This document shows, in pieces, positions 11,612 to 59,510 of a DNA stretch of 64,000 nucleotides. Within the stretch, counting starts at the first letter, position 1; the number at the start of each line of letters is the position of its first letter. The translations under genes were made by a program, and so were the position numbers. This DNA comes from Planctomycetota bacterium (GTDB lineage Bacteria; Planctomycetota; B15-G4): positions 42,232 through 106,231 of the forward strand of contig JBBQUR010000017.1 in NCBI GenBank assembly GCA_038212275.1. Reading direction: 5' to 3'. The notes beneath the pieces are model-generated. The model did no database searches and was not told the DNA's origin. It worked only from the letters and a program-made list of their open reading frames with translations.

Positions 11612-12583
11612 TCAGCTCTCCATCTCGCGCCCGAGAAAGAAGCCGTCGTCGCCCTGGCTCTGGTAGAGAGGAAAGACGAGCCAACCGTCCTCGTCCGCCC
11701 GCACTTCGCCGTGCCGATCGCGCGCGAGCAGCGTGCCGGCGCGGACGCGCTGCAGGTTCGCGAAGCCGGGCTCCATGCGGAAGTCGTCGTCCTTCCGGAG
11801 CGCGTGCCGGTGATGAACCTGAATCACGCGTGGCAGTCCGCGGCTCGCGCCCTGCAGCCGCGCGGCGTGCTGCGCGAGGTCCGGCAGCGCCGTGCCTTCC
11901 ACCAGACCGGTGAAGGCAAGCGCCAGCATCAACACCGAGTGCAGCTGGTCGACCGAGCCAGGATCGTCGTTCTGCCCGCCCTCCACCACGAGCGAGACGC
12001 AGCCGCGACGAGTCAGGTATCCGGCGAGGATGCCGTGGACTCTTTCGAGCATTCCGCGGAGGGCGGGCAGGCCCACGGCCAGCGCGAAGCCGCTGCTGTC
12101 CGCCGTGCCGGCCACGATCGAGAAGGCGAAACCCGCGGCGGACGAGGTGTGCAGGTCGAGCACGAAGACGCGCCGCCCGTCGTGCAGGAAGGGTTCGATG
12201 GCCGCGAGCAAGTCGAGCTGCTCGCGGTCCTCGGTCTCGGGCGCGGCGCCCGCTGGCGACCCGTTGCCGTTCCCGTGGCTGCCCGTCGCCGAGCGGAGAT
12301 GCGCGAGGCTCTCCTCGGTCCAGCCGCGATTGAGGTCGCGCGTGAGGAAGCGTCGCTGCTGCTGCAGTGCACCGCGATTGCCGAGCAGCACGAGCAGCTC
12401 GCCGTGCATCGGCACGTGCTCCTCGCGGAGTCTCGCGAGCACGCGCCGGGCCGCCGCGATGCCGGCGGGCTCGTTGCCGTGAATGCCCGCGATGACGAGG
12501 AGCAGCGGGCCTCCCTGGGTGCCGCGCAGGTGGCCGAGCACACGGCCGTCGGCCGCGTTGCTGCCGGCGGCCCCCGCCGTCAC
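11612..12583 (-). CDS. Succinylglutamate desuccinylase/aspartoacylase (M14) family hydrolase
   Basis: AGIHGNE, RDLNR, LDLHT motifs; GTG start overlaps the upstream TGA. Confidence 0.85.
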   Translation of the reverse strand: MTAGAAGSNAADGRVLGHLRGTQGGPLLLVIAGIHGNEPAGIAAARRVLARLREEHVPMHGELLVLLGNRGALQQQRRFLTRDLNRGWTEESLAHLRSATGSHGNGNGSPAGAAPETEDREQLDLLAAIEPFLHDGRRVFVLDLHTSSAAGFAFSIVAGTADSSGFALAVGLPALRGMLERVHGILAGYLTRRGCVSLVVEGGQNDDPGSVDQLHSVLMLALAFTGLVEGTALPDLAQHAARLQGASRGLPRVIQVHHRHALRKDDDFRMEPGFANLQRVRAGTLLARDRHGEVRADEDGWLVFPLYQSQGDDGFFLGREMES

Positions 12584-14490
12584 TCGGCGAGCTTCTGCTT
12601 GAGAAGCTGGCTGGCGATGTCGGCGAAGTCGCCGGGCGTGATCATGCCCACGAGACGTCCGCGGTGGACGACGGGCAGGCACCCGACCTTGTGCGTGTTC
12701 ATGAGCTCGATCGCGCGCATGGTGGTCGTGCCCGGTGCGACCGTGAACGGATCGCGGTGCATCACTTCCGAGACGGGGATCGCGTCGGCGCCGCGCGCGG
12801 CGTCCTGCGCCGTCAGCAGCCGCAGCAGCGAGCGATAGGAGACCAGGCCCACCAGCCGGTGCTCCTGATCTTCCACCGGAACGTGGCGGATGCCGTGCCA
12901 CTGCATGAGGTTGGCGGCCAGCTCCACCGGATCGTCTTCCTGCACGGTGTACAGGTCGGTGGACATGTACTGCTCGATGTGCACGTAGTTGTGCTTCCAG
13001 CCGCCGGCCTCGACGCGCTGCGCGGGCTCCCACGACTCCACCGTGGCGCCGCTCTGCTGTCGCGCGGCCGTGGCGGAGGTCAGCGCGGTCAGTCGTTCGG
13101 CGGCCGTGCCGTGCCCCTTCATCTGGGCCAGCGAGAAGAGCAGCCAGCGCGCGCCGGTGCGGCCGGTGCGCACGCGGCGCTCGATGACGCCGAGATAGCG
13201 CTCGCGATCCGCATCGTCGACGCCGCCGCTGCGCAGGCCGGCCTCGGCGAGCGGCAGCAGGTGGTCCAGCACCAGGTGCGGCGCCGACATCTCCTCGCCG
13301 TCCAACCAGATCATGGGTGCGCCGAGTCCGTAGCGCGCGCCGGTGGTGAAGTTGGCCCGCGCGTGCTCGAACTCCATGACCTTCGTGATGTCCTCGTGCT
13401 TTGCCGCGAGGCCGAGCATGCAGCCGTACCAGAAGGCGCCGTTGGCGACTTCGTCAGTGACACTTGGACCCGACGGCAGCACGCGGTTCTCGATGCGGAG
13501 GTGCGGCTTGCCGTCGGTCACGCCGTAGCAGGCGCGGTTCCAGCGGTAGACGGTGCCGTTGTGCAGGCGCAGGCTGCGCAGTTCGGGCACGCCGCCGCGC
13601 TCGAGAATCGCCATCGGATCCTCGCCGCTCTCGCCGCCGACCAGCGTGCGGAAGCGCGCGACGTCCTCGCGGTAGATCTCCACCACCGAGCGCCGCAGCC
13701 AGCGATCGCCGAAGGACACGCGCGCCTGAACGTCGCGCTCGTGATTCGGGCTGCGCGTGTCCACGGCCTGCTCGAAGAGCGCGATGCGCGTCTCGGTCCA
13801 CAGCCTGCGGCCGAAGAGCAGCGGCGAATTGCTGCAGCAGGAGAGCAGCGGCCCGGCCAGGGCCTGCGCGATGTTGTAGAGATTGGGGAACTCCGCCGCT
13901 CCCGACTGCAGGTGCACCTGGAAGCTCGTGTTGCAGGCCTCCACCATCACCGAGTCGTGCTTGAGGCGCAGTTCGTCGGCGCCTTCGATGGCGATCTCGT
14001 AGTCCTGCCCGCGCAGCGCGGTCATCGCGCGGTTGAGCATCTGGTAGCGCGGGTTGGGAACCATGTTCTCCAGCCCGAGATCGGAGCGGCGCAGCGACGG
14101 CAGGATGCCCGTGAGCACGATCTCCAGCCCGGCAGGCCCGATCGCGCGACGCAGCTGCCCGAGCAGACCGGAGAGCTGGTGCTCCATGCGCCGGAAGCAG
14201 TCGCCGCCGAAGAGCTGAGGATCGAGGTTGCACTCGAGCTGGAACAGCCCCAGCTCCGTGGTGAAGTGCGGGTCATTCACCAGCTCGAGGGCCTTGAGCG
14301 ATGCCGGCGCCGGGTGCCAGTGCCGATCCACGAGGAAGACTTCCTGCTCGGCGCCCACGCGGCGCACGCCTTCCTCGATCAGCCCGTTGGACAGCATGGC
14401 CTCGAGCGCCTGAAGGTCACGCAGGATCGCGCGCATGAAGCGCCGCCGGTCCGGGCCCGCGAACTCGGCATCGACTTTCTGCTCACCCAT
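12580..14490 (-). CDS. Glutamate-cysteine ligase (GCS2)-like carboxylate-amine ligase fused to a CBS pair
   Basis: GAEQE, TTELGLFQLE, TSFQVHLQ, NSP, WNR, HLRIENRVLP; two C-terminal CBS domains. Confidence 0.88.
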   Translation of the reverse strand: MGEQKVDAEFAGPDRRRFMRAILRDLQALEAMLSNGLIEEGVRRVGAEQEVFLVDRHWHPAPASLKALELVNDPHFTTELGLFQLECNLDPQLFGGDCFRRMEHQLSGLLGQLRRAIGPAGLEIVLTGILPSLRRSDLGLENMVPNPRYQMLNRAMTALRGQDYEIAIEGADELRLKHDSVMVEACNTSFQVHLQSGAAEFPNLYNIAQALAGPLLSCCSNSPLLFGRRLWTETRIALFEQAVDTRSPNHERDVQARVSFGDRWLRRSVVEIYREDVARFRTLVGGESGEDPMAILERGGVPELRSLRLHNGTVYRWNRACYGVTDGKPHLRIENRVLPSGPSVTDEVANGAFWYGCMLGLAAKHEDITKVMEFEHARANFTTGARYGLGAPMIWLDGEEMSAPHLVLDHLLPLAEAGLRSGGVDDADRERYLGVIERRVRTGRTGARWLLFSLAQMKGHGTAAERLTALTSATAARQQSGATVESWEPAQRVEAGGWKHNYVHIEQYMSTDLYTVQEDDPVELAANLMQWHGIRHVPVEDQEHRLVGLVSYRSLLRLLTAQDAARGADAIPVSEVMHRDPFTVAPGTTTMRAIELMNTHKVGCLPVVHRGRLVGMITPGDFADIASQLLKQKLAE

Positions 14491-14496
14491 GTGCTT

Positions 14497-15222
14497 TCAG
14501 ACGAACTCGTTCAGGTACAGCGGCAGCATCGTGCGCCACGTAGGCCAGTCATGGTGCCACTCGGCTCCCCACGGGTCCACTCGGTTGGGGATGCCCCGGC
14601 TGCCGAGCACGTCCGCCATGCGCCAGCTTTCGCCGATGTCCTCGGCGCGCCCCTGCCCGGAGGCGAGCAGGATGAAGCGCTTGCGGATCGCCTCGAGCGC
14701 CTCGCCCTGAAGCTGCGGAAGGAAGTGGATCGGGGACGCGTAGTGGAAGTCCTCGCCGCCGTCGCCCTTGAGGAAACGGGAGACGTCGTAGGTGCCGCTC
14801 ATGCACAAGGCGTGCGAGAAGACCTCCGGGTAGCGGCAGACCATGGCCAGCGAGTGGAAGGCGCCGATGGACGCGCCGGTGGCCACCACCTCGACCGACT
14901 GCTGCCCGCAGTCGGCGGCGATGGCGGGCACCAGCTCGTGGCGCACGAACTCGTGGAAGCGATTCTGCATGCGGCCGCGGTAACGGCTGCTGCCCTCGCC
15001 CGCCACCATGACCTGACCGGCCACGCTGTCGCAGGAGTAGACCTTGATGCGGCCCGCGTCGATGAGGGGCTGCACCGCGCCGATCATGTGAAAGCGCTCG
15101 ACCTCCTCGGCGTCCCCGCCGGCGGTCGGGAAGAGCAGCACCGGCTTGCCGTAATGGCCCCAGCGCACGACCGAGACGTCCTGGGCGACGCGCGTGGAAT
15201 ACCAGCGTGTGGCGTGCTTCAT
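14497..15222 (-). CDS. Alpha/beta-hydrolase (esterase family)
   Basis: WGHYGKPVLLFPT, GASIG nucleophile elbow, HDWPTW; ATGA overlap with the upstream gene. Confidence 0.85.
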   Translation of the reverse strand: MKHATRWYSTRVAQDVSVVRWGHYGKPVLLFPTAGGDAEEVERFHMIGAVQPLIDAGRIKVYSCDSVAGQVMVAGEGSSRYRGRMQNRFHEFVRHELVPAIAADCGQQSVEVVATGASIGAFHSLAMVCRYPEVFSHALCMSGTYDVSRFLKGDGGEDFHYASPIHFLPQLQGEALEAIRKRFILLASGQGRAEDIGESWRMADVLGSRGIPNRVDPWGAEWHHDWPTWRTMLPLYLNEFV

Positions 15223-16472
15223 TTCAGCCCCGCCGCTGCGCCGGACTCGTGCTCGCGCCAGAGCTGGATGCGCGACCAGAACAGCTCCGTGAACTGGTCC
15301 ACTTCGCGCGCGGGGAAAAGCGCCGCCACCTTGATGCGCACGGCGTGCTTCGCCGTGTCGGTGGCGAAGAACTCCCACGCGGTCTCGTCCAGGTGCGGCA
15401 GGTGCCGGGCGCAGAATTCCTCGAAGCGCGCGGCATCGAAGCGCTTGCGGGCCAGTGCGGCGCACGCGGTCAGCCGCTTGTTCGCGTCCGGCTCGTCGTT
15501 CGCGATCTCGAAAAACGGATTCCAGTCGAGGTTCTGGCGCATCGGGCGCTTCGTCGCCGCGCAGAAGATCGACCAGCGCAGGTTCGCCTTGAGCAGCCAC
15601 GGGAAGTGATAGTGCAACGAGGTCACCTGGCTGTCCGGGCAGGCATTGGCGAAGTCGATCGGGTGCCACGTGCCGTCGCGGCGCAGCGCCTCGCAGGAAT
15701 TGAAGTCCCAGCCGAAGAAGGCGTTGATCGTGAGGGTCATGTCGCGCAGCACCTGCGCCTGGTCGGGCGGCGCGACGTCGCGGTCCATCGTGTAGCGGTC
15801 GTGCAGCGGCGCCGAGGCGTCGTAGCGGATGAGCCGCGTCTGCGGCCCGAAGCCGATGCAGCGCACGAAGCTGTCGTGCGGGTCCACCGCCTTCTGCAGG
15901 TGCATGACGTTCGTGCCGCTCTTCTCGTAGGCGGCGCGCAGCGCGGCCTCGTCCTTGATCTGCGACACGCCCGCCCAGCCGCCGCCATCGTAGGGCTTCA
16001 TGAATGACGGGTAGCCCAGCGCCTTGCCCACCTGCCCGATGTCGAAGAGCTTCGCGTAGCGTTCGAGCGTGCTCTGCAGGTCGTCCCTCGGGGCATACTC
16101 CTTGGGCGGCAGCAGCCAGGTGTCCGGCACCGGCAGGCCCAGCTTCATCATCGCGCAGTAGGTCGTGTGCTTCTCGTTGGCCTGGATGGACCACGGATTG
16201 TTGAAGACATAGAGCCCGTCCATGACGACGCACTTCTTGATCCACTCGCGGCTCGGCATGTACCAGTGCGTGAGCCGGTCGATGACCAGGTCGTAGCGGC
16301 AGGGCTGGCGCAGGTCGAAGGGCTCGATGCTGACGCGCTCGACCTCGAAGCGCACCGTGTCGCGCCCGATGCGCAGCGACAGCTTGAGGCGCGCCATCAA
16401 CTCCTCGTAGCAGAGCGGCCAGCACAGGTCCGCGCCCAGCGACAAGCCGATCTTTCGAACGATCTCAACCAT
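15219..16472 (-). CDS. ATP-grasp ligase (RimK/GshB-like)
   Basis: LGLPVPDT, GYPSFMKPYDGGGW, HLQKAV, PIDFAN. Confidence 0.85.
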   Translation of the reverse strand: MVEIVRKIGLSLGADLCWPLCYEELMARLKLSLRIGRDTVRFEVERVSIEPFDLRQPCRYDLVIDRLTHWYMPSREWIKKCVVMDGLYVFNNPWSIQANEKHTTYCAMMKLGLPVPDTWLLPPKEYAPRDDLQSTLERYAKLFDIGQVGKALGYPSFMKPYDGGGWAGVSQIKDEAALRAAYEKSGTNVMHLQKAVDPHDSFVRCIGFGPQTRLIRYDASAPLHDRYTMDRDVAPPDQAQVLRDMTLTINAFFGWDFNSCEALRRDGTWHPIDFANACPDSQVTSLHYHFPWLLKANLRWSIFCAATKRPMRQNLDWNPFFEIANDEPDANKRLTACAALARKRFDAARFEEFCARHLPHLDETAWEFFATDTAKHAVRIKVAALFPAREVDQFTELFWSRIQLWREHESGAAAGLK

Positions 16473-16511
16473 CGTGAACTCCGTGAACCTCTCTGCCCGT
16501 GCGGGGTGCCA

Positions 16512-17678
16512 TCACTCGTAGACCATCCAGAGCTGGCCGGGGAAGAGCCAGGTGAGGCCGTCGCGCAGGCGATCGCGCCAGTTTTCCCAATTGTGACCGT
16601 CGCGCGCCTCCGTGTAGCGCACCTCCATGCCGGTCTCGATCAGCAGCGGGATCAGCGAACGGTTCTCGTAGATGAGCGGCTCGTAGATGCCGCAGCTCAC
16701 GAAGACCTGCTCGGCGACGCGGATCGGCTTCTCGCGGAAGGTGTTCACGAAGTCCACCACCGGATCGTACGCCGGCCCGCGCCGGTTCGGGCCGATGTCC
16801 GTGAAGCCGAAGGAGCCGGAGAGCAGCGCCAGCCTGCCGAAGGACTCCGGCCGGCTCGCGGCCGTCGCCAGCGAGGCCACAGCCCCGAAGCTCGCTCCCA
16901 TGAGTCCACGCGCGGCGGGCTCGTCCAGCAGCGACTCCCTGGCCTGCAACCAGGGCAGCAGCTCCCCGGCGATGAACTGCGCGTGCCGCGGGTCCGCGGC
17001 ATACTCGTGCAGGCGCTGCACGGGATGCGTGAAGGCCACCACCATCTCGGCCAGCTCGAGCCGGTGCGTGAGGTTGTCCAGCACCGTCTTCATGCTCGAA
17101 TAGTTCAGGAAGTCGCCGCCGTCGTGGACGATGAGCAGCGGGTAGCGGCGCTCGCGGCGGTAGCGCGCGGGGCGATAGAGCGTGATGCGGGCGTCGCGAC
17201 CCAGCGCGCGGCTCGGCAGCACCAGATCCTCCAGCGTGCCCGGGCGCGTCTCGGGATGCGGGAGCGTCCACTCGGGGGTCTCGTAGCCGACGCCGTGCAC
17301 GACCGAGGTCGTGCCGAAGGGATCGCGTGCGTGACGCCGGTTGAAGGCATCCTCGACCAGCGTCGTCGTGTCGCCCACTCGCACCTCGAATTTGTATTCG
17401 ATGCGCGAGGCCTCCGGCAGGTCGAAGGCGAGGTGCCAGAACGGGCCGGGCGCCGCGCGGTTCAGCGGCAGCCTCGAGGTCAGGCCGGCGATGCGGTGCT
17501 GAAGGTGCACGGCGTCGGCCTCGCCTCGATAGAGGAACAGGCAGCGTCGGCCATCCACGATCGGGCAGCCGTGCGCGTCGACGAAGCGCTGCAGAGCCTC
17601 GGTCGACGGCGGATCCGCCGACAGCAGCGCGATGAGCTGGCGCAGGTCCTGCGATGCGTGACTGACGATGGCCGTCAT
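16512..17678 (-). CDS. Enterochelin-esterase-like alpha/beta hydrolase with N-terminal CBM48-like domain
   Basis: N-terminal W...RIEYKF...D..N segment; YPLLIVHDG, MGASFG, GHNW. Confidence 0.85.
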   Translation of the reverse strand: MTAIVSHASQDLRQLIALLSADPPSTEALQRFVDAHGCPIVDGRRCLFLYRGEADAVHLQHRIAGLTSRLPLNRAAPGPFWHLAFDLPEASRIEYKFEVRVGDTTTLVEDAFNRRHARDPFGTTSVVHGVGYETPEWTLPHPETRPGTLEDLVLPSRALGRDARITLYRPARYRRERRYPLLIVHDGGDFLNYSSMKTVLDNLTHRLELAEMVVAFTHPVQRLHEYAADPRHAQFIAGELLPWLQARESLLDEPAARGLMGASFGAVASLATAASRPESFGRLALLSGSFGFTDIGPNRRGPAYDPVVDFVNTFREKPIRVAEQVFVSCGIYEPLIYENRSLIPLLIETGMEVRYTEARDGHNWENWRDRLRDGLTWLFPGQLWMVYE

Positions 17679-18622
17679 GCGCCGGTCCAGACGTGGACCG
17701 AACCGTCGGCCCCCATGCGGCGCGTGCCCGCCGGGAAGCTCCACGCGCCGTCGAGCAGGTCCACGCGCTCGCCGTCGTCGAGCGGCACGCAGAGGGCGGG
17801 CGCAAAGCGTCGCGCCGTGAGCAGCACGCGGTGCACGTCGTCGAATCGCAGTCGATGGCGCGCGTGCGGAAAGGGCAGCAGCGCAGGAGCCAGCGCCAGC
17901 CCTGCGCCGAACACTTCCGTGTGACCGGGTCCGTGCGGCGGCGTGTTGTGGAACAGGACGACGCGCTCGGCAAGCGCCATCGCGCCCGCCGACCACGCGA
18001 GCACGGTGGCGCCCTTCAGCAGCGAGGCGATGTCGAACAGTCGCAGGCGATTGAGCAGCACAGCCACCTGTCCGCCGGCGATCGCGACCGCGCCGGCGTC
18101 GCGCACCAGCGCCTCGATCTGCCGGCGCTCGTGGGCCACGGCCGGCCGCTGGACGGGCTGCCAGCGCGCGTCGAACTGCTCGTGCACGTCGGCCACGCGC
18201 CGCAGATGCTCCTCATCGAGGACTCGCAGGGCCTCGATGGAGGCGGCGCGCTCGTGCCGCAGCGGGACCTCATTGCCGGCTCGGTGCAGCAGCTGCATGC
18301 AGGCGGCCATGGCATGCGCGAGCCGGAGGCGGTAGAGCGCCTGCAATTCGCGCAGCAGCAGGAGCCGGTCCTTGAGGGCCTGCTCCAGCTCGGGGTCGCG
18401 CCTGAGAACCGTCTCCGAGCGGGACCAGAGATCCAGGTTCACGGTGCGGCCGCCGAAGTGCTCGTCCAGCTCGCGGTCCTCGCGTTCACGCTCCATCCAG
18501 CCGGCGGTGATCGTCGCGATCTTCGCGCCCTCGTCCACGCCCAGCACGCGCGCTGCCTCGACGAGCGACGGCTTGTGCCGCTGCGGTCCGAGCAGACAGG
18601 CGCACCGCATGGCGCTGCTCAT
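17675..18622 (-). CDS. Peptidase S51 (dipeptidase E/cyanophycinase-like, class I GATase fold)
   Basis: ITAGW, IAGGQ, AWSAGAM nucleophile, FPH. Confidence 0.75.
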   Translation of the reverse strand: MSSAMRCACLLGPQRHKPSLVEAARVLGVDEGAKIATITAGWMEREREDRELDEHFGGRTVNLDLWSRSETVLRRDPELEQALKDRLLLLRELQALYRLRLAHAMAACMQLLHRAGNEVPLRHERAASIEALRVLDEEHLRRVADVHEQFDARWQPVQRPAVAHERRQIEALVRDAGAVAIAGGQVAVLLNRLRLFDIASLLKGATVLAWSAGAMALAERVVLFHNTPPHGPGHTEVFGAGLALAPALLPFPHARHRLRFDDVHRVLLTARRFAPALCVPLDDGERVDLLDGAWSFPAGTRRMGADGSVHVWTGA

Positions 18623-19842
18623 GAAGCGTGCACCTTGAGCGTGCGGCCGACGTGATCGAGCATCTCGCGAAGCGTGTCGTAGTCCGGGTGCTTGAGGCGC
18701 AACCACGCGTTGGCCATGTAGCCGGCCTCGACGGGCTGCGTGGGCGTGCCGGCCGGCGGCAGGTGAGCGTCGATGATCCAGCGCTCGAACATCGAGCGGA
18801 TCTCCTCCACGCCCGAGTAGCCGCGGATGGTGCCGTCGCAGTCGGGGCGCAGCGCGATGATGCCGGCCGAGAAGGCGCGCGAGGCCCGCTGCGACGGGCG
18901 GCCGTGCACGATCGCCATGGCCCATTCGCGATAGATGTCCATGTCGTTGGCCGCGGCGTAGAGGTCCCACGCGCGCACGCCCGGCGGCCGGCAGCCGATC
19001 TCCGAGAACTTCAGCCCCTTGGGCCCGGCGAACCACTCCATGTGCGTGGCCGACGTGCCGATGCCCAGCACGGGCAGCACGCGTCGACCGAGCGCCTTCA
19101 CCTCCGCATAGCCCGGCTCGCTGTCGACGCGGTTCGTGGCGATGAACTGCGGCGAGATCCAGCGCGTGCGCATGGCCTCGAGAACGTTCGGGTAGTAGTG
19201 GCACACGAACTCGTGCGCGACTTCGCCGCCGATGGAGATGGTGTCGTAGAAGCCCTCGTGTCCCTCGATGAACTCCTCGACGGCGATCGATCCACCGCGG
19301 TCGAAGGGCACGCCGGCCAGTACGGCCTCCAACGCCTGGCGGTCGTCGACGCGGTGCGTGCCCGAGGCGCCCGCGCCGTCGCGCGGCTTGAGGATGAGCG
19401 GATAGCCGACGCGCTCCGCGAAGGCGCGCACCGCGTCCGCGGACTCGCCGCCCAGCGAGGCCGCCGTCGGGACGCCTGCCTCGCGCAGCACGTCCTTCAT
19501 CGTCGGCTTGTCGCGGCAGAGCCAGGCCGTGCGCGTGGAGGTGCCCGGAATGCCGCAGGCCTCGCGCACGCGGGCCGCCGCACTGATGTGCGCCTCGACC
19601 GTGGCCTCCAGCCGCTCCACTCTGACCTTGCTCTGCACGAAACGCACGGCCTTCAGCAGTGCGTCCTCGTCCACGACGGAACGCACCTGCTCGTAGTGCG
19701 AGAGCCATTGCTTCAGTTCAGGATCGAGCGACTCCTTCGGCCGCTCGCCGATGCCGATGGTGGTCGCGCCCACCGCGTGCAGCGCGCGCGCGAACTCGCG
19801 CTGGTTGGCCGGAAAGCACGGCTCGACGAGGATCACGTTCAT
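18619..19842 (-). CDS. ATP-grasp ligase (L-amino-acid ligase-like)
   Basis: RDKPTMK, YPLILKPRDGAGA, EEFIEGHE, THMEWF, SEIGCRPPG. Confidence 0.88.
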   Translation of the reverse strand: MNVILVEPCFPANQREFARALHAVGATTIGIGERPKESLDPELKQWLSHYEQVRSVVDEDALLKAVRFVQSKVRVERLEATVEAHISAAARVREACGIPGTSTRTAWLCRDKPTMKDVLREAGVPTAASLGGESADAVRAFAERVGYPLILKPRDGAGASGTHRVDDRQALEAVLAGVPFDRGGSIAVEEFIEGHEGFYDTISIGGEVAHEFVCHYYPNVLEAMRTRWISPQFIATNRVDSEPGYAEVKALGRRVLPVLGIGTSATHMEWFAGPKGLKFSEIGCRPPGVRAWDLYAAANDMDIYREWAMAIVHGRPSQRASRAFSAGIIALRPDCDGTIRGYSGVEEIRSMFERWIIDAHLPPAGTPTQPVEAGYMANAWLRLKHPDYDTLREMLDHVGRTLKVHAS

Positions 19843-21473
19843 GGCACTGCTTTCCCCGTGGTGGGCTTCGATGAGGACCTGGATGCCGGCGCCGACCGCG
19901 CGATCGGCACGTCTGGCGCGGCGGGCGCGGCCGGCGCGGCCGACCGTCCGTGCAGCCGCTCGTACAGCTCGATGTAGCGCCGGCACTGCGTGCGCCACGA
20001 GAAGTCGCGGAGCATGCCGTTGGTCTGCAGCCGCCGCCAGGCCTTGCGATCCTCGAAGACGGACAGCGCGCGTCCCAGCGCCCAGCGCAGCCCCTCGGCG
20101 GTGAAGTGGTCGAAGAGAAAGCCGGTGCCCTCGCTCGTGGCGGAGCTCCAGGGATCCACCGTGTCGGCGAGCCCGCCGGTGCGGCGCACCACCGGAACCG
20201 TGCCGTAGCGCAGGCTGTACATCTGGTTGAGGCCGCACGGTTCGTACAGCGACGGCATGAGGAAGAGGTCGCTGCCCGCCTCGATGCAGTGCGCGAGTTC
20301 CTCGCTGAAGCCGCGGAAGAAACAGACGCGCCCGGGGAAGCTCAGCTGGAGCCGCGCCAGCGCCGCCTCGTAGCTCGGCTCTCCGCTGCCCAGCGCGGCG
20401 AAGCGCAGAGTCGTCCGCTGCAGCAGCCCCGGCAGCACGGCCAGCAGCAGCTCCACGCCCTTCTGTGCCGACAGCCTCGAGACGAAGCCCGCCAGCGGCG
20501 CCTCCTTGTCGGCCGACAATCCCAGGCGCGCGAGCAGGTCCGACTTGTTCTTCGCCTTGCGCGCAAGGCTCTTCACGGAATAGTGCGTGGCGATGTGCGG
20601 GTCGGTGAGCGGATTCCAGATCTCGTCGTCGATGCCGTTCAGGATGCCGACCAGCGCGCCGGCGCTCGCGCGCGCGGCCAGCAGCGCATGCAGGCCCACG
20701 CCATGCGCCTCGGTCCGGATTTCCTCCGCATAGCCGGGACTCACCGTCGTGAGCACGTCGGCGTAGAGCAGACCGTGCTTGAGAAAGCCGATGCGGCCCG
20801 CGCGCAGGTCGTCCTGGTGGAGCATGGGCGCCGCGTCGCCCAGCGACAGGTCGGGCAGGATGTCGGCGCCGAAGCCGCCCTGGTAGCCGAGGTTGTGGAT
20901 GGTGAGCACCGTGCGCGTGTTCGCGAAGAGCTTGTCCCACGCGTAGATCGAGCGCAGGTAGAGCGGCACCAGCGCGGTCTGCCAGTCGTTGCAGTGCAGG
21001 ATGTCCGGGCCCCACTGCGCGCGCTGCAGGCACTCGATCGTCGCGCGCGAAAGCAGCAGGAAGCGCAGGTGCTCGTCGGCGTCCTGCGTGTAGATGCCGG
21101 GGCGCTCGAACAGCGGCGGGCAGTCGATGAAGTAAACGTCCAGCTCGCTGCCGGGCAGCCGCGCCGTGCGCAGGGTGACCGGGTAGCGGCGCGAGCCCAG
21201 GGTCAGCAGGAAGGGCGGGATTCCGGGCACCGGCCGGAGCTCGACGCCCTGCTCGCGCACCCGCGCATAGAGCGGCATGAACACGCGCACGTCGTGACCG
21301 GCGCGCTGCAATTCGCGCGGCAGCGCCGCCGACACGTCCGCGAGGCCGCCCGTCTTCGCGAAAGACGCCATTTCGGAGGTGACGAACGCGATGCGCAACG
21401 GATCTCTCGCTGGCTGGCCTGGCGGCCCGGGCGGGAGCGGAGTGTGGCGCGGGGCCCGAACGCGGCGCGGCAT
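19839..21473 (-). CDS. glgA: Glycogen synthase
   Basis: KTGGLADV, HCNDWQT, TIHNLGYQG, TVSPGYA, MPSLYEPCGLNQ, TGGLADTV. Confidence 0.96.
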   Translation of the reverse strand: MPRRVRAPRHTPLPPGPPGQPARDPLRIAFVTSEMASFAKTGGLADVSAALPRELQRAGHDVRVFMPLYARVREQGVELRPVPGIPPFLLTLGSRRYPVTLRTARLPGSELDVYFIDCPPLFERPGIYTQDADEHLRFLLLSRATIECLQRAQWGPDILHCNDWQTALVPLYLRSIYAWDKLFANTRTVLTIHNLGYQGGFGADILPDLSLGDAAPMLHQDDLRAGRIGFLKHGLLYADVLTTVSPGYAEEIRTEAHGVGLHALLAARASAGALVGILNGIDDEIWNPLTDPHIATHYSVKSLARKAKNKSDLLARLGLSADKEAPLAGFVSRLSAQKGVELLLAVLPGLLQRTTLRFAALGSGEPSYEAALARLQLSFPGRVCFFRGFSEELAHCIEAGSDLFLMPSLYEPCGLNQMYSLRYGTVPVVRRTGGLADTVDPWSSATSEGTGFLFDHFTAEGLRWALGRALSVFEDRKAWRRLQTNGMLRDFSWRTQCRRYIELYERLHGRSAAPAAPAAPDVPIARSAPASRSSSKPTTGKAVP

Positions 21474-21503
21474 GGGGGCGACACTCTATCAACTCGGATC
21501 CGC

Positions 21504-21549
21504 GCCGCCGAGACATGCCGCCGAGACATGTGTCGGAGCAGTCGGAGCA
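21504..21549. repeat. Tandem repeats in the divergent promoter region
   Basis: GCCGCCGAGACAT x2 (21504-21529) and GTCGGAGCA x2 (21532-21549). Confidence 0.7.
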
Positions 21550-21626
21550 ACGGGCGCTGCAGATCTCGCTGCGGAGATACGCCGCTGTTGTCCCCTGCTC
21601 CCGCCGCCAGTAGATTGCTGCGGCCC

Positions 21627-22859
21627 ATGACCACGGTTGCGTTCGTAGCCCCGTATTCGCTCGAGACGACGATGCGCTTCGTGCAAGCGGTCGCCGAGCT
21701 CCCGGGCGTTCGCTTCGCGCTCGTGACCCACGAGGCCGAGGAGCGGGTGCCCGAGGCGATCCGCGCGCGGCTTGCGCAGCACTGGCGCGTGACGAACTGC
21801 CTCGACCCCGACCAGCTTGCGGCCGCGGTCGAGGGCATCGGCCGCCGCATCGGCCGCGTCGAGCAGCTCATCGGCACGCTGGAGGAGCTGCAGGTGCCGC
21901 TGGCGCAGGTGCGCGCGCGGTTCGGCATTCCGGGTCTCGGCGTGGAGGCGGCGCGCAACTTCCGCGACAAGACGCGCATGAAGAGCGTGCTGCAGGCGGC
22001 AGGCCTGCCGTGTGCGCGACACCGGGAGGTCGAGAGCGCGGAGGCGGCCGTGGCCTTCGCGCGAGACGCGGGCTTTCCGCTCGTCGCCAAGCCGCCCGCG
22101 GGTGCCGGTGCGCGCAACACCTTCCGCATCGAGGATGCCGCGCAGCTCCGGCAGTGGCTGGACAGCTCGCCCCCCACCCCCGGCGCGCCCGTGCTGCTCG
22201 AGGAGTTCATCACCGGCGCCGAACATTCCTTCGACAGCGTGATGGTCGGCGGCCGGCTGGTGTGGCACTCCATCAGCCGCTACTTCCCCACGCCGCTGGA
22301 TGTCCTGAGCAACCCGTGGATCCAGTGGTGCGTCATGCTGCCGCGGGAGATCCATCACGCGGCGTACGACGACATCCGCGCGGCGGCAGAAGCCAGCCTG
22401 CGCGTGCTCGGCATGGAGACCGGGCTCACGCACATGGAGTGGTTCCGCCGGCCCGATGCACGGCACGGCTCGAGCCTCGCCATCTCGGAAGTGGCCGCGC
22501 GTCCGCCCGGCGCACAGTTCACGACGCTGCTCTCGTACGCGCACGACCTCGATCTGTACAAGGCCTGGGCACGTCTCGCGGTGACTGGCGCCTTCGAGGC
22601 GCCCGAGCGGCGCTGGGCCGTCGGCGCGGCATACCTGCGCGGCCAGGGGCACGGCAAGGTGGTGGCCGTGCACGGCCTCGATGTCGTCGCCGAGGAACTC
22701 GGCCCGCTCATCGTGGAGTCGCGCCTGCCTCGCAAGGGGCAGCAGCCGACGGGCAGTTACGAAGGCGAGGGCTACGTGATCCTGCGGCACCGGGACACCG
22801 AGGTCGTCGAGCGCGCGCTGGCGCGACTCGTGAGCGTGGTGCGCGTGGAGCTGGCATGA
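21627..22859 (+). CDS. ATP-grasp ligase (L-amino-acid ligase-like)
   Basis: RDKTRMK, KPPAGAGA, EEFITGAE, THMEWF, SEVAARPPG. Confidence 0.88.
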   Translation: MTTVAFVAPYSLETTMRFVQAVAELPGVRFALVTHEAEERVPEAIRARLAQHWRVTNCLDPDQLAAAVEGIGRRIGRVEQLIGTLEELQVPLAQVRARFGIPGLGVEAARNFRDKTRMKSVLQAAGLPCARHREVESAEAAVAFARDAGFPLVAKPPAGAGARNTFRIEDAAQLRQWLDSSPPTPGAPVLLEEFITGAEHSFDSVMVGGRLVWHSISRYFPTPLDVLSNPWIQWCVMLPREIHHAAYDDIRAAAEASLRVLGMETGLTHMEWFRRPDARHGSSLAISEVAARPPGAQFTTLLSYAHDLDLYKAWARLAVTGAFEAPERRWAVGAAYLRGQGHGKVVAVHGLDVVAEELGPLIVESRLPRKGQQPTGSYEGEGYVILRHRDTEVVERALARLVSVVRVELA

Positions 22860-24073
22860 ACGTCCTGATGCTTTCGCCGGGCTACCCGCCCGAGATGCCG
22901 CAATTCGCGCGCGGACTCGCGGCCGTCGGTGCGCGCGTGATCGGCCTCGGCGACCAGCCGGAGTCGGCCCTGCCGGCACCCGCTCGCGCGGCGCTCTCGG
23001 CCTACGTGCGCGGACCGGGCTGGGGCGACGAGGACGCGGTGATCGTGGAGGTCGAGCGCCTCGCGCGGCGCGTGTCCATCGATCGCGTCGAGAGCCTCTG
23101 GGAACCGCTCATGGTGCTGGCGGCCCGCATCCGCGAGCGGCTCGGCCTGCCGGGCATGACGGTGGAGCAGACGCTCCCGTTCCGCGACAAGGAACTCATG
23201 AAGCAGGTGCTCGACGCGGCCGGCATCCGCACGCCTCACCATGCACGCGCACACGATGTGAATGAGGTGATGCAGGCCATCGAACGCGTGGGTTATCCGG
23301 CGATCCTCAAGCCGATCGCCGGCGCGGGTTCCAAGGACACCTTCCGCGTGAACGACGCGGCGGAGCTGGCCGCCGTGCTGCCGCGCCTGCGCCACGTGGC
23401 CGAAGTGAGCGTCGAGGAGTTCGTCGACGGCGAGGAATTCACCTTCGACACCGTGTGCGCCGACGGCCGCATCCTCTATCACAACATCAGCATGTACCGG
23501 CCACGGCCGCTGCTCGCACGCCAGCTCGAGTGGGTTTCTCCGCAGACGATTGCCCTGCGCGAACCGGAAGCGCCGGCGCTGCAAGGCGGCCGCAAGCTGG
23601 GCGAAGCCGTGCTGCGCGCGATGAACTTCCGCGAAGGCTTCACGCACATGGAGTGGTTTCGCAAGGCCGACGGCGAGGTCGTCTTCGGCGAGATCGGCGC
23701 GCGCCCGCCCGGTGCGTACAGCGTGGACATCATGAACTACGCCTCGGACATCGACCTCTTCACCGGCTGGGCGGAAGCCGTCTGTCACGGCCGCTTCAGC
23801 CAGCCGCTCGAGCGCCGCTACAACTGCGCGTCCATCTTCAAGCGCGCGCGCGGCCAGGGCCGCATCCAGCGCATCGAGGGCCTCGGTCCGCTGCTGGCCG
23901 AGTTCGGCCCGCAGATCGTGCTCGTGGATCTGCTGCCGCCGGGAACTCCCCGCCGCGACTGGCTCAACACGCTCATCTCCGACGGCATGGTCATCGTGCG
24001 TCACCCGGACTTCTCGATCACCTGCGACATCGCCGACCGCATCGGCACCGACCTGCAGATGGTCGCCGGGTGA
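22856..24073 (+). CDS. ATP-grasp ligase (L-amino-acid ligase-like)
   Basis: RDKELMK, KPIAGAGS, EEFVDGEE, THMEWF, GEIGARPPG; ATGA overlap. Confidence 0.88.
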   Translation: MNVLMLSPGYPPEMPQFARGLAAVGARVIGLGDQPESALPAPARAALSAYVRGPGWGDEDAVIVEVERLARRVSIDRVESLWEPLMVLAARIRERLGLPGMTVEQTLPFRDKELMKQVLDAAGIRTPHHARAHDVNEVMQAIERVGYPAILKPIAGAGSKDTFRVNDAAELAAVLPRLRHVAEVSVEEFVDGEEFTFDTVCADGRILYHNISMYRPRPLLARQLEWVSPQTIALREPEAPALQGGRKLGEAVLRAMNFREGFTHMEWFRKADGEVVFGEIGARPPGAYSVDIMNYASDIDLFTGWAEAVCHGRFSQPLERRYNCASIFKRARGQGRIQRIEGLGPLLAEFGPQIVLVDLLPPGTPRRDWLNTLISDGMVIVRHPDFSITCDIADRIGTDLQMVAG

Positions 24074-26439
24074 GCCGCGCGCGGCCGCCCGCGCCGGGAT
24101 CTGCGCCGGCGCCGGCGCCGTGGCCCGGCGCCGCCAGCGTCGCAGACATCGAGCGCCTCGTGCGCGGCGAGCACGGCAGCCCCTTCGACGTGCTCGGCCC
24201 GCACGCGCCAGGCGAGGCACCGGCTGAGTCGCGCGAGGCGTCTGCTGCGCCGCGCGAGGCGCCAGCTGCGCCGTCGGCGCGGACTGCGCCTGGCGGACAG
24301 GCCGTGACTCTGCGGGTCTGGATTCCAGGCGCTCGCGAGGTGCAGGCCGTGCTCGGCCGGCGTCGTGTGCCGCTCGAGCGCCGCCATCGCGACGGCTTCT
24401 TCGAGACGCGCCTCGAGACGCCCGACGCTGCGGCGGACCTGCGCTACCGCCTCGCCGTCACTGACAGCGAAGGTGTCACCACACTTCGCGATGATCCCTA
24501 CCGCTTTCCGCCGCTGCTCGGCGACTTCGACCTGCACCTCTTCGGCGAGGGCACGCACGACCGCATCCACGAAGTGCTCGGTGCGCACCTCCTGCAGCGG
24601 GACGACGTGCGCGGCGTGAACTTCGCCGTGTGGGCGCCGAATGCGCTGCGCGTGTCGGTGATCGGACCGTTCAACCGCTGGAACGAGCGTGCGCACCCGA
24701 TGCGACTGCGCCCGCAGAGCGGCGTGTGGGAACTCTTCGTGCCGGGCCTGACCGCGGGCGAGCTCTACAAATTCCACATCCGCACGCGGCTGGCCGGCCG
24801 CGGCACGGTGAAAGCCGATCCGCTCGGATTCGCCATGGAGCGGCGTCCGCAGACGGCGTCCGTGGTGAGTGACCTGGAAGCCTTCCGCTGGCGCGACGGC
24901 ACGTGGGTGGCGGGACGCGCGGCGAAGCAGGCGGCGGACCGCCCGATCCTCATCTACGAAGTGCACGCCGGCTCGTGGCGTCGCGTCGCGGGCGAGCAGA
25001 ACCGCTGGCTCGACTGGCGCGAGCTGGCGCGGCAGCTCGTGCCCTACGCAAAGCGCATGGGCTACACGCACCTGGAACTGATGCCCGTGTCGGAGCACCC
25101 CTACGACGCCTCGTGGGGCTACCAGCCGACCGGCCTGTTCGCGCCCACGTCGCGCTTCGGCACGCCCGACGACTTCCGCGCCTTCGTCGATGCCGCGCAC
25201 CGCGCCGGCCTCGGCGTGATCATCGACTGGGTGCCGGCGCACTTCCCCAAGGACGCGCACGGCCTCGGCTTCTTCGACGGCACGCACCTCTACGAGCACG
25301 CCGACCCGCGCAAGGGCGAGCACAAGGACTGGGGCACCTACATCTACAACTTCGGCCGGCCGCAGGTGGTCAGCTTCCTGATTGCGAGCGCGCTGTTCTG
25401 GCTGGAGCACTATCACATCGACGGCCTGCGCGTGGACGCGGTGGCCTCGATGCTGTACCTGGACTACTCGCGCAAGGAAGGCGAGTGGGAACCCAATCGC
25501 CACGGCGGGCGCGAGAACCTCGAGGCGGTGGAGTTCCTGAAGCGCTTCAATCATCTCGTGCACGCGCGCTTCCCGGGCGTGCTCACCATCGCGGAGGAAT
25601 CCACCGCCTGGCCCGGCGTCACCGCGCCCGTGGAGCACGGCGGGCTCGGCTTCGACCTCAAGTGGAACATGGGCTGGATGCACGACATGCTCGAATACAT
25701 GAGCGCGGACCCGCTGGGCCGTTCGCACATGCAGGGGAAGCTCACGTTCTCGCTCTACTACGCCTTCAGCGAGCGATTCCTGCTGCCGCTCTCGCACGAC
25801 GAGGTCGTGCACGGCAAGCGCTCGCTGCTGTTCAAGATGCCCGGCGACCGCTGGAACAAGTTCGCCAACCTGCGCGCGCTCTACGCCTACATGGCGGCGC
25901 ACCCGGGCAAGAAGCTGCTCTTCATGGGCGGCGAGCTCGGCCAGCGCCGCGAGTGGAACCACGACGACCAGCTCGACTGGGCGCTGCTGGAGCCCGACGA
26001 GAAGCACAGTCACGACGGCCACCGAAAGCTGCACCGCTTCGTGCGTGACCTGAACAGGCTGGTCCAGTCCGTGCCTGCGCTGCACGTCGAGGACTACGGC
26101 CCGCAAGGTTTCCAGTGGATCGACTTCCAGGACGAGGCGAGCAGCGTGGTGTCCTTCGTGCGCCGCGGCCGGCTGCCCGACGAGCTGCTGCTCGTCGTCG
26201 CGAACTTCACGCCGGTGCCGCGCACTCTCTATCGCATCGGAGTGCCCGTCGGCGGTGCGTGGGCTCAGCGACTGAACAGCGACGACACCCGCTACGGCGG
26301 CAGCGGCCTGGGTCAGCCTGCGGGCGTGAACGCCGAGGCCGAGCCGTGGCATGGCCACCCGCAGTCGATCGTGCTCACGCTGCCGCCGCTGGCCGTGCTC
26401 TTCCTGGAGCCGCGGACCGTCCGGCAAGCCGAGGGCTGA
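24070..26439 (+). CDS. glgB: 1,4-alpha-glucan branching enzyme
   Basis: FAVWAPNA, IYEVHAGSW, SWGYQ, DWVPAHF, DGLRVDAVASM, AEEST, SHDEVVHGK; GTGA overlap. Confidence 0.97.
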   Translation: MSRARPPAPGSAPAPAPWPGAASVADIERLVRGEHGSPFDVLGPHAPGEAPAESREASAAPREAPAAPSARTAPGGQAVTLRVWIPGAREVQAVLGRRRVPLERRHRDGFFETRLETPDAAADLRYRLAVTDSEGVTTLRDDPYRFPPLLGDFDLHLFGEGTHDRIHEVLGAHLLQRDDVRGVNFAVWAPNALRVSVIGPFNRWNERAHPMRLRPQSGVWELFVPGLTAGELYKFHIRTRLAGRGTVKADPLGFAMERRPQTASVVSDLEAFRWRDGTWVAGRAAKQAADRPILIYEVHAGSWRRVAGEQNRWLDWRELARQLVPYAKRMGYTHLELMPVSEHPYDASWGYQPTGLFAPTSRFGTPDDFRAFVDAAHRAGLGVIIDWVPAHFPKDAHGLGFFDGTHLYEHADPRKGEHKDWGTYIYNFGRPQVVSFLIASALFWLEHYHIDGLRVDAVASMLYLDYSRKEGEWEPNRHGGRENLEAVEFLKRFNHLVHARFPGVLTIAEESTAWPGVTAPVEHGGLGFDLKWNMGWMHDMLEYMSADPLGRSHMQGKLTFSLYYAFSERFLLPLSHDEVVHGKRSLLFKMPGDRWNKFANLRALYAYMAAHPGKKLLFMGGELGQRREWNHDDQLDWALLEPDEKHSHDGHRKLHRFVRDLNRLVQSVPALHVEDYGPQGFQWIDFQDEASSVVSFVRRGRLPDELLLVVANFTPVPRTLYRIGVPVGGAWAQRLNSDDTRYGGSGLGQPAGVNAEAEPWHGHPQSIVLTLPPLAVLFLEPRTVRQAEG

Positions 26440-46001: not shown

Positions 46002-46468
46002 GGATTCACTCCTGTTCGAGATCACCGTGTCATCCCCGGTGCGGCACAGCGCCGAACGCCTGATCAACCCAAACTCAGCCTCTGTAGCCGTATCCGGTTA
46101 TAGACCTTTCCGCACCGGAGATGGTCCCACGCATGCGGCAGTCGGTCAAGCGCTGCGAGCACCAATCCGCGGAGCATGCCGTGCGGTGGTTCGCCAATGA
46201 GGCCGCAAAGTGCATTTCTGGCACTTCCGGCTTTCGTGTGGGTAGCTGGGACGCCATCACCCACCGTTTCGACCTGCGTCGGTAGCTGTTCACGACGCAT
46301 CCCGCCCCTGGCCCGAGGGCCCCAGGCCGGACTTGCCCTTTCCGCCCTAACCTTGATGTGTCGAGTAGATCAGATGGGATGAGAAGGCCAGCCTCCTTCG
46401 CGGGATACCTGTGGGGTTCCCATCGTCATCACGAGCTCGAGGGCTCACAGACAGAAGGAGGCTGATCC

Positions 46469-55631: not shown

Positions 55632-55948
55632 TGAGCCATCCGCCCCACCCCGACGCCGCGGCTGAGCCAACCCGTCGCAGCACGATCCAGCGATGGTCGT
55701 TCGAATGCTGCAGGCACCTCGGCATCACGTCGCCGTCCCGCCGCCTGCCACCCAGCTGTTCCGACAGCCGCGGGCGCGTCACTCATAGACCGAACGCCAC
55801 AGCGCCCTTTCGGCGAACGAAGCTTGAACGCTCCCACTTGCTGCAGTAGCGTTTCCAGTGCTCCGAGCCATTCCAAGGGCGACCCCGTGGGTCGCCACCA
55901 TTCCAAGCCACTCCGAGCGCCGTGCAGTCACTGCACGAGGAGGTGGCC

Positions 55949-59370: not shown

Positions 59371-59510
59371 AGGCTCACCCGCGTCGTCGGCTACGAGCCC
59401 CCCAGGAATCGCGAAGCATTGGCCCATCGGGGCGAGGCATCCGGGGACCCCGGCGACTTGCAGCGCTGACGAGAATGAGCCCTCATGGCCTCCCTTCTCG
59501 GGAGCCTGCC

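Follow-up and report, generated by a model that had tools for sequence, protein, structure and literature searches.

What role could five ligases and four hydrolases play among the genes of glycogen synthesis, when bacterial glycogen is treated as a pure glucose polymer? The question is raised by a locus at positions 11612-26439 of a stretch of 64,000 nucleotides (hereafter the window; contig JBBQUR010000017.1, positions 42,232 to 106,231 of the forward strand) from the genome of a Planctomycetota bacterium (GenBank assembly GCA_038212275.1, 40 contigs). Here, the genes for a glycogen synthase (glgA) and a glycogen branching enzyme (glgB) are joined to those of the ligases and hydrolases. We propose, with a probability that we put at roughly 0.35, that this cassette works on its own to produce a branched alpha-glucan, to which amino-acyl or short peptide groups are attached and from which they are removed again.

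Coupling of glycogen genes with ligase and hydrolase genes

At ~70% G+C, raw lists of open reading frames of the locus are crowded with shadow frames. Genes were called from third-position GC frame plots and by inspection of start codons for a rise of third-position GC at candidate starts. Families were assigned with Pfam and NCBIfam profiles, and folds by searching AlphaFold models with Foldseek. We obtained 11 genes in two divergent strings. The leftward string (minus strand) consists of the eight genes glgA, AG1, S51-like, Est1, AG4, Est2, GCS2-CBS and AstE-like, and the rightward string (plus strand) of the three genes AG2, AG3 and glgB (AG1-AG4 being ATP-grasp ligases, Est1 and Est2 serine esterases). 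The genes are translationally coupled: of the nine junctions, seven are overlaps of 4 bases, with ATGA in five and GTGA in two, and the remaining two are gaps of 6 and 39 bases. AG3 overlaps AG2 by ATGA and glgB by GTGA, and AG1 overlaps glgA by ATGA. Both glgA-AG1 and AG3-glgB are thus joined by such a 4-base overlap, which supports our proposal.

The two strings are separated by 153 bases (21474-21626, bounded by the gene calls). A small carrier-protein gene within the cassette is ruled out, since the gaps of 6, 39 and 153 bases leave no room for it. A scan for consensus promoters and terminators gave nothing above the level of shuffled sequence, and none in the divergent intergenic region; an Rfam scan of positions 9000-30000 had no match. 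An initial annotation of this DNA, made from the sequence alone, had described two divergent operons with mostly ATGA or GTGA overlaps, and our independent gene calls reproduced all 11 of its genes, their order and their coordinates. Each of its family assignments is supported by Pfam and NCBIfam, with the S51 match just under the Pfam cut-off and AG4 without a Pfam match.

Alternatively, the ligases and hydrolases may serve a separate cytoplasmic amino-acid compound that is made and broken in step with glycogen for the balance of carbon and nitrogen, with no covalent link between the two. The candidates are a cyanophycin-like poly-amino acid, a depsipeptide with Ser/Thr esters and a small peptide solute; we regard this explanation as possible but doubtful, a grade that the candidates share jointly. 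The overlaps of glgA with AG1 and of AG3 with glgB, and the joint transfer of these genes described below, argue against it: to our knowledge, it is unusual for the genes of two distinct reserve polymers to be interleaved with translational coupling between them.

The glycogen enzymes

GlgA (19839-21473, minus strand, 544 amino acids, with an alternative start ATG at 21371) is an ADP-glucose-type glycogen synthase that scored 536.8 bits with TIGR02095 (cut-off 328.45) over model positions 2-477 of 477, and 253.6 bits with PF08323. Its translation holds the sequence FAKTGGLADV, which includes KTGGL, the N-terminal nucleotide-sugar motif of GlgA; K40, G42, G43 and L44 are invariant among 19 module-linked GlgA proteins. 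GlgB (24070-26439, plus strand, 789 amino acids), a 1,4-alpha-glucan branching enzyme, reached 996 bits with NF003811 (cut-off 741) and 920.5 bits with TIGR01515 (cut-off 464), and has the Pfam domains CBM_48, Alpha-amylase, Alpha-amylase_C and GlgB_N. The position of glgB behind AG3 is the same in three of the loci described below (L035, L036 and L039). GlgA and GlgB are full-scoring glycogen enzymes.

The source genome carries a second glgA (G000:C5:172578-173945), 40% identical to that of the window and from a different deep clade, and a second glgB (G000:C5:32982-34835; 53% identity). Its single glgC is unlinked to the cassette. We also considered an acidic GlgA tail as a substrate of the ligases and rejected it, as the C-termini of module-linked GlgA proteins are not conserved. 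Co-folding of GlgA with AG1 gave a score of 0.00 (mark 0.32), which counts neither for nor against a pairing.

Linkage of the module to glycogen genes across phyla

With the alignment of the S51-like protein as anchor, one genome per species was scanned, and in the 80 loci obtained the components were sought by tblastn with the window proteins. As 37 of these loci are shorter than 18 kb, the component counts are lower bounds. The S51-like protein has more than 4291 homologues. All 80 loci, spread over roughly a dozen taxon labels, contained both S51-like and Est1, followed by AG4 (62), Est2 (50), AG1 (37), AG3 (24), AG2 (21), GlgA (17), GCS2-CBS (11), AstE-like (7) and GlgB (3). The labels, taken from record titles and grouped into phyla by ourselves, are Planctomycetota (including Brocadiaceae and a Kuenenia label), Acidobacteriota, Thermoanaerobaculia, Myxococcota groups, Gemmatimonadales, Candidatus Eisenbacteria, Binatia, Krumholzibacteriia, Limnocylindria, Multivoradales, Steroidobacteraceae, Gammaproteobacteria and Actinomycetota. 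The five-ligase, four-hydrolase locus recognized by the initial annotation is a real unit, and its gene set recurs, at the counts given, in all 80 loci fetched from these many phyla. Clustering of open reading frames from 93 loci revealed no further widely conserved family, exporter or carrier protein.

At least one glycogen gene lay within 10 kb of the module in 30 of 80 loci, and in 21 of the 43 loci of at least 18 kb, against a rough chance expectation of 3-4%. The initial annotation had named an unconserved glg linkage as one of the findings that would refute its reading; the neighbourhood survey shows the linkage to be conserved. Eight glycogen families were found near the module (GlgA, GlgB, GlgC, GlgP, GDE, GlgX-like, GH57 and MalQ). 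Among the smaller clusters that recur were GlgC (nine loci), GDE (six), CBM48 alpha-amylase (five), alpha-glucan phosphorylase (five), GH57 (four) and MalQ (three). We conclude that conservation of the glg linkage exceeds chance by a wide margin, and that the linkage is frequent, not obligatory. That eight glycogen families flank the module in different lineages is hard to reconcile with a separate compound; the long loci without a glycogen gene within 10 kb (22 of 43, about half) speak for one.

Eight long proteins in the protein collection contain AG1, each in a single-member cluster and several covering only parts of genes. Four of them (P0122, P0123, P0125 and P0128) join AG1 to pieces of GlgA, S51-like, Est1 or AG4, and the other four combine AG1 with extra sequence that matches no window protein. 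We rejected these proteins as true fusions, and thus as Rosetta-stone evidence, on account of the single-member clusters and the partial gene coverage; the four named ones are probably gene calls that read across neighbours in high-GC DNA. The record of P0125 is named Actinoplanes digitatis, and a cultured carrier may therefore exist.

Dependence of the module on glgA

In 41 related genomes, AG4 was found in 22. AG1 (two paralogues per genome) and Est1 showed the identical distribution, each being found in these 22 genomes and not in the remaining 19. Gene order was read from 13 fetched loci, eight from the same family as the source genome and five from two other families. All eight same-family loci have GlgA and AG1 divergent from AG2-AG3-S51-Est1-AG4-Est2; glgB is there in none of the eight, and GCS2-CBS lies a few kb beyond AG1 in three. 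The five loci of the two other families have only S51-Est1-AG4, with or without Est2, with AG1 elsewhere and AG2-AG3 at a third place. In one of these families (f2), the module is split into S51-Est1-AG4, AG1 with an M14 protein, and AG2-AG3, all apart from glgA. In three of four fetched loci of the split type, AG1 is directly followed by a gene for a protein of ~860-900 amino acids with an N-terminal Peptidase_M14 domain (L121:9205-11910, L122:9222-11792 and L123:5301-7994). The arrangement looks like a ligase-carboxypeptidase pair that replaces the AstE-like gene. The separation from glgA in f2, and the pairing of AG1 with an M14 carboxypeptidase-domain protein there, favour a separate compound.

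A GlgA at least 49% identical to that of the window was found in 14 relatives, among them 11 same-family module carriers and the genomes G027 and G011, the last of which is 58% complete and had no module gene. The f2 genomes carry the module with only a GlgA of the 39-44% type, like most module-free genomes. In 10 of the 11 same-family module carriers, the module-type GlgA is the only GlgA match (E <=1e-30, with this query). The glucan concerned is therefore ordinary glycogen.

Among 301 genomes of the window's own phylum with a completeness of 85% or more, 54 had AG4 and 207 had glgA; glgA was present in 51 of 54 AG4-bearing genomes vs 156 of 247 others (Fisher p 8e-7, uncorrected for kinship). 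The three AG4-bearing genomes that showed no glgA are assemblies of 890-1340 contigs. In a second phylum, centred on locus L041, AG4 was found in nine of 151 genomes, with seven strong and two weak matches (E ~1e-41, 31-32% identity). There, glgA was present in nine of nine AG4-bearing genomes vs 91 of 142 others (p 0.02, likewise uncorrected; the glgA total of 100 of 151 includes three genomes flagged unpublished). On these counts, the module is nearly confined to glgA-bearing genomes.

Horizontal transfer of the cassette as a block

Each cassette protein of the window is closer to its counterparts in L036 (Binatia label), L053 (Limnocylindria label), L039 and L035 than to same-family copies. 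Identities to L036 vs same-family relatives are 77% vs 64-67% for AG1, 76% vs 59-66% for AG4 and 69% vs 47-49% for GCS2-CBS, and the order of the 11 genes in L036 is identical to that in the window. Trees were calculated for GlgA (43 rows, IQ-TREE quick), AG4 (72 rows, FastTree) and AG1 (40 rows, FastTree). The window groups with L036 in all three, and with L053 as well in the GlgA and AG4 trees (support 95-98). The same-family relatives form a separate clade without the window in all three (support 97-99). Within the main clade of the GlgA tree, the 13 proteins from module-free genomes group together (99), separate from the module-linked GlgA. The label 'linked' needs two changes on this tree, a number as low in 0 of 500 shuffles. 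Given the trees and the identical order in L036, glgA, and by its position glgB, belong to the transferred unit. The sequence comparisons show that the cassette, including glgA, has been transferred horizontally as a block.

It is very improbable in our view that the glg neighbourhood is incidental and that the module is a secondary-metabolite pathway for an antibiotic- or siderophore-like peptide. The idea draws on the L-amino acid ligases BacD and RizA, which make antibiotic dipeptides, and on the resemblance of Est1 to a siderophore esterase (both described below). However, among the 93 loci no gene for siderophore synthesis or uptake, transporter, receptor, non-ribosomal peptide synthetase or resistance recurs with the module, and the 60-77% identity of AG4 and AG1 across phyla is very high for secondary metabolism. 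Moreover, the eight-family glg linkage, the near-restriction to glgA genomes and the block transfer are hard to ascribe to chance.

The ligases

AG1 (18619-19842, minus strand, 407 amino acids), AG2 (21627-22859, plus strand, 410 amino acids, start TTG 21615 or ATG 21627) and AG3 (22856-24073, plus strand, 405 amino acids) match ATP-grasp models of Pfam and NCBIfam, AG3 with both ATPgrasp_N (PF18130) and ATP-grasp. Profile searches of the PDB identified L-amino acid ligases as the best matches and nearest solved relatives, namely RizA (4wd3, E 1.7e-22), BacD (2e-14) and BL00235 (6e-13). AG2 is a paralogue of AG1 (~33% identity), and AG1 itself is 62-77% identical across phyla. Judged by these matches, AG1-3 are classified as L-amino-acid-ligase-type ATP-grasp enzymes. 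Ligases of the RizA, BacD and BL00235 type belong to antibiotic pathways and yield free dipeptides; the cassette differs in that three paralogues are fixed together with esterases and glycogen enzymes. The nearness of AG1-3 to dipeptide-forming enzymes is a further point for a separate compound.

Another such point is the likeness to cyanophycin metabolism (CphA with the S51 enzymes CphB/CphE), in which ATP-grasp ligases are combined with an S51-type hydrolase, as they are in the cassette with the putative S51-like one: non-ribosomal amide bonds are formed by ATP-grasp chemistry in the cytoplasm and in a reserve-like context. However, CphA unites ATP-grasp with a Mur-ligase-like domain in ~900 amino acids, and the cassette encodes no such protein. 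AG1-3 reached at best 27.7-38.3 bits over ~100 residues with the cyanophycin synthetase models TIGR02068 and NF010623 (cut-offs 850-877), which argues against a cyanophycin-like compound. The cassette further differs by its four separate ATP-grasp proteins, its two esterases and its coupling to glgA and glgB, and its S51 match is borderline.

AG4 (15219-16472, minus strand, 417 amino acids) is divergent and has no Pfam family match; all ligases other than GCS2-CBS are 405-417 amino acids long. Its ATP-grasp nature rests on weak NCBIfam and PDB matches, the latter retrieving D-Ala-D-Ala ligases, together with the predicted fold. The AlphaFold model (predicted local distance difference test, pLDDT, 86) has an extra C-terminal helical domain at residues 290-417. 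In the Foldseek search, RimK or ArgX chains take ranks 1-5 and 8-10 (E 2.6e-9 to 1.7e-8; target-normalised template modelling score, TM, 0.60-0.65). These top structures are RimK 5zk6 (with RpsF), 7qyr and 4iwx and ArgX/LysX 3vpc, 3vpb and 3vpd, including complexes with LysW; Ddl/VanA and, lower down, the macrocyclase MdnC also matched. Scores with the RimK/LysX families were below cut-off (TIGR00768, 23.6 vs 143.4 bits; TIGR02144, 21.3 vs 275.6). By its modelled fold, AG4 is a RimK/LysX/Ddl-like ATP-grasp. MdnC, an ATP-grasp enzyme that forms Ser/Thr esters, fits the depsipeptide candidate among the separate compounds.

AG4 is 61-76% identical across phyla. It contains 14 Trp (3.4%), 11 of them invariant across phyla, compared with 3.0% in GlgB and 1.5-2.0% in AG1-3; this richness is a weak hint that the protein may have a carbohydrate- or protein-binding surface.

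GCS2-CBS (12580-14490, minus strand, 636 amino acids) is a GCS2-type carboxylate-amine ligase (PF04107, 30.9 bits, cut-off 21, residues 45-274) with a C-terminal CBS pair (94.7 bits in two stretches), and residues 501-631 match CBS proteins in the PDB. Where present, its gene is always downstream of Est2. With presence in only 11 and seven of 80 loci, respectively, GCS2-CBS and AstE-like are therefore accessories and not core parts. The energy-charge control through the CBS pair that the initial annotation envisaged was not borne out, as GCS2-CBS is an accessory.

The hydrolases

Est1 (16512-17678, minus strand, 388 amino acids) is a two-domain serine esterase (PF00756, 72 bits). Ser263 in the motif GASFG is invariant, and His362 is conserved in at least 90% of 30 sequences. 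In the model (pLDDT 91), a beta-sandwich is followed by an alpha/beta hydrolase. The lowest E values with Foldseek (~1e-23) were obtained for feruloyl and acetyl-xylan esterases of the CBM48+CE1 type (6rzn, 7b5v, 8bf3; TM 0.58-0.66), which have the same order of domains and remove ester-linked acyl groups from polysaccharide. The highest TM (0.70-0.72) was reached by the enterobactin esterase Fes (PF11806 + PF00756; 2b20, 3c87, 3mga), which shares the two-domain fold and is similar in sequence in the catalytic domain; one Est1 homologue from the protein collection has PF11806, the family of the N-domain of Fes. CBM48+CE1 enzymes act on xylan outside the cell. The Est1 translation, judged by eye, appears to start without a signal peptide. 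Fes cuts amino-acyl (seryl) esters.

Neither likeness is complete. Est1 is below the Fes cut-off (NF007758, 89.7 vs 222 bits), is found without siderophore context and has a C-terminal tail of its own beyond the region aligned to Fes. The CBM48+CE1 enzymes differ by their lower TM and by the CBM48 sequence signal that Est1 lacks: with its N-domain, Pfam gave no CBM_48 at E up to 10 and a CBM_20 at E 0.099, and hhalign against the CBM48 of GlgB gave a probability of 4.3% (control 0.4%). CBM48 homology of the N-domain was rejected, as both tests were non-significant. The 'CBM48-like' esterase of the initial annotation thus holds at the level of the fold and fails at that of the sequence, and the idea that the N-domain is a CBM48 or binds glycogen is not supported, the fold being equally or more Fes-like. 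The overall closeness of Est1 to Fes, a cutter of seryl esters in a peptide-like trilactone, can be read in favour of a separate compound.

Est2 (14497-15222, minus strand, 241 amino acids) is a small serine esterase (PF00756, 46.5 bits) with the nucleophile motif GASIG in its translation and no usable match in a PDB sequence search. The S51-like protein (17675-18622, minus strand, 315 amino acids), a putative serine hydrolase resembling type 1 glutamine amidotransferases, scored 22.7 bits with PF03575 (cut-off 23.9), and 19 of 27 homologues matched this family at E <=0.001. A candidate triad consists of Ser211 in WSAG (27 of 27 homologues), His253 (24 of 27) and Glu236 (26 of 27). The PDB sequence search, solved S51 structures included, gave no usable match. 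The AstE-like protein (11612-12583, minus strand, 323 amino acids, GTG start) is an AstE/AspA-like zinc deacylase (PF24827, AstE_AspA_cat, 57.9 bits, cut-off 25) with the metal motif HGNE in its translation, and matched succinylglutamate desuccinylase (1yw6, E 5e-8) in the PDB. It is below the equivalog cut-offs TIGR03242 (51.4 vs 305.65 bits) and NF002601 (41.4 vs 180 bits) and, on these scores, is classed as a family member that is neither AstE nor aspartoacylase itself.

The Tyr-Glu tail of Est1

The C-terminus of Est1 reads PGPxxxxYE, and the final Tyr-Glu (YE) was found in 79 of 79 readable cases among the 80 anchored loci. A cruder caller of open reading frames applied to 93 loci gave YE in 50 of 52, YD in one and SR in one. 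In the window, the tail is encoded by the last ten Est1 codons (16512-16541). An invariant terminal pair was seen in no other module protein; partial conservation was seen in AG2 (LG, 13 of 24) and AG3 (AG, 17 of 24). In 62 of 80 loci, the gene next after Est1 is AG4; in all five checked genomes whose locus is without AG4, it is present elsewhere.

RimK acts on S6, and LysX/ArgX on LysW, by ligating to a protein C-terminal Glu. The results suggest that AG4, given its modelled fold, may act on the Est1 tail. This leads to another explanation, which may coexist with either glucan decoration or a separate compound: AG4 would be a protein-tail ligase of the RimK/LysX kind with the Tyr-Glu end of Est1 as its substrate. 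Est1 would then either be a regulated enzyme, switched as residues are attached to its tail and taken off again, or serve as a LysW-like carrier with its terminal Glu as the site of assembly for the product of AG1-3. We consider this unlikely, in either form. It agrees with the best structural matches of AG4 (RimK with RpsF, ArgX/LysX with LysW), with the invariant Glu at an end of Est1 that lies beyond the Fes-aligned part, with the position of AG4 next to Est1 and their presence in the same 22 of 41 relatives, and with the carboxypeptidase-type partners (AstE-like in the window, M14 in f2). On the other hand, a conserved C-terminus can be purely structural, and the Est1 tail is hydrophobic and not acidic, unlike the S6 and LysW tails. 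AG4 also has the extra helical domain and stays far below the RimK cut-off, the cassette is without a small carrier protein, and the tail alone leaves the link to glycogen genes unexplained.

A proposed cycle of glucan decoration

We return to the reversible decoration of glycogen. The cassette would comprise two pairs of bond-making and bond-breaking activities, one for amides (AG1-3 and GCS2 against S51-like and AstE-like or M14) and one for esters, in which AG4 is probably the ligase that Est1 and Est2 oppose. The ligases would activate amino-acid carboxylates as acyl phosphates, and one of them would esterify a glucose hydroxyl of nascent glycogen or of a maltooligosaccharide. AG4 would be the likeliest candidate for this step, since its gene lies between those of Est1 and Est2. 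Further residues, probably acidic ones, would then be added in amide linkage by the L-amino-acid ligases and GCS2. For removal, the two esterases would hydrolyse the ester, and the peptide would be trimmed and recycled by the S51-like and AstE-like (or M14) enzymes. Such a cycle would adjust how charged, soluble or accessible the glucan is, and would be a carboxyl-ester counterpart of starch phosphorylation and dephosphorylation. The presence of two esterases in the core, and the fold that Est1 shares with CBM48 polysaccharide esterases and Fes, supports this proposal. The glg linkage, the near-restriction to glgA genomes, the block transfer, the joint presence of AG1, AG4 and Est1, the ordinary nature of the glycogen, the apparent lack of a signal peptide in Est1 and the absence of a conserved exporter or carrier protein speak for it as well. 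A more specific version, in which the glycogen of many phyla is reversibly esterified with amino acids or short acidic peptides to control the solubility, charge or mobilisation of the reserve, and Est1 is primed or switched at its Tyr-Glu end by AG4, is in our view possible but doubtful.

In starch, glucan water dikinase adds ester-linked phosphate to the alpha-glucan, and the phosphatases SEX4 and LSF2, as hydrolases with a domain of the glucan-binding type, remove it. The methylglucose lipopolysaccharide of mycobacteria is acylated, with dedicated GlgA-like and branching enzymes in the same cluster. These systems are likened to the proposed cycle by their logic of adding and removing groups, with no homology sought; they differ in that their enzymes belong to other families and the groups are phosphate or short acyl or methyl groups.

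Several findings weigh against glucan decoration. We know of no ATP-grasp enzyme that esterifies a sugar hydroxyl. Half of the long loci are without a nearby glycogen gene, the f2 module is apart from glgA, three AG4-bearing genomes showed no glgA, and the co-occurrence counts are uncorrected for shared ancestry. In Est1, the higher TM to Fes, the PF11806 domain of a homologue, and the Pfam and hhalign results for the N-domain point in the same direction.

Full-text searching found no literature on the module or its product; these searches did not cover Iyer et al. 2009 on amidoligases, which may treat related neighbourhoods. The first 300,000 characters of a 2024 Chem Rev review of prokaryotic alpha-glucan enzymes (PMC11046441) do not contain 'ATP-grasp', 'esterase', 'amino acid ligase' or 'peptidase'. 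The initial annotation knew of no characterised product, and none was found in the print sources covered.

Neighbouring genes in the window

A gene for a right-handed beta-helix protein (9895-11541, minus strand) lies on the same strand 70 bases downstream of the AstE-like gene; in one relative, a beta-helix gene 28% identical to it sits between Est1 and AG4 (L021:9991-11049). Just downstream of glgB, positions 26716-28089 (plus strand) encode a protein of 457 amino acids with no Pfam family and 18 Trp (3.9%). A B12-binding radical SAM gene follows 1.7 kb past glgB (28146-29723, minus strand); a relative with 27% identity is directly upstream of the S51-like gene in two genomes (L019:8654-9526 and L023:6179-7105), which may be coincidence. 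Positions 40000-60500 have a lower G+C content (0.57-0.63) and encode an IS110-family transposase (46466-47548), a ParB-DNA methylase fusion (55850-57328), a large terminase (58060-59367) and a phage-type integrase (59286-60410). Most likely, this region is a prophage remnant or an island with no connection to the cassette.

Significance

A very well conserved module is thus found among glycogen genes, with four or five ligases that depend on ATP and three or four hydrolases. It points to an undescribed covalent modification of glycogen, or to a companion reserve. Possible new chemistry includes an ATP-grasp enzyme that forms esters, or a protein-tail ligase that acts on an esterase. Either a modified glycogen or a companion reserve would change the reading of carbon and nitrogen storage in carriers of the module among the bacteria of soil, sediment and wastewater, including those of the anammox lineage (Brocadiaceae and Kuenenia labels).

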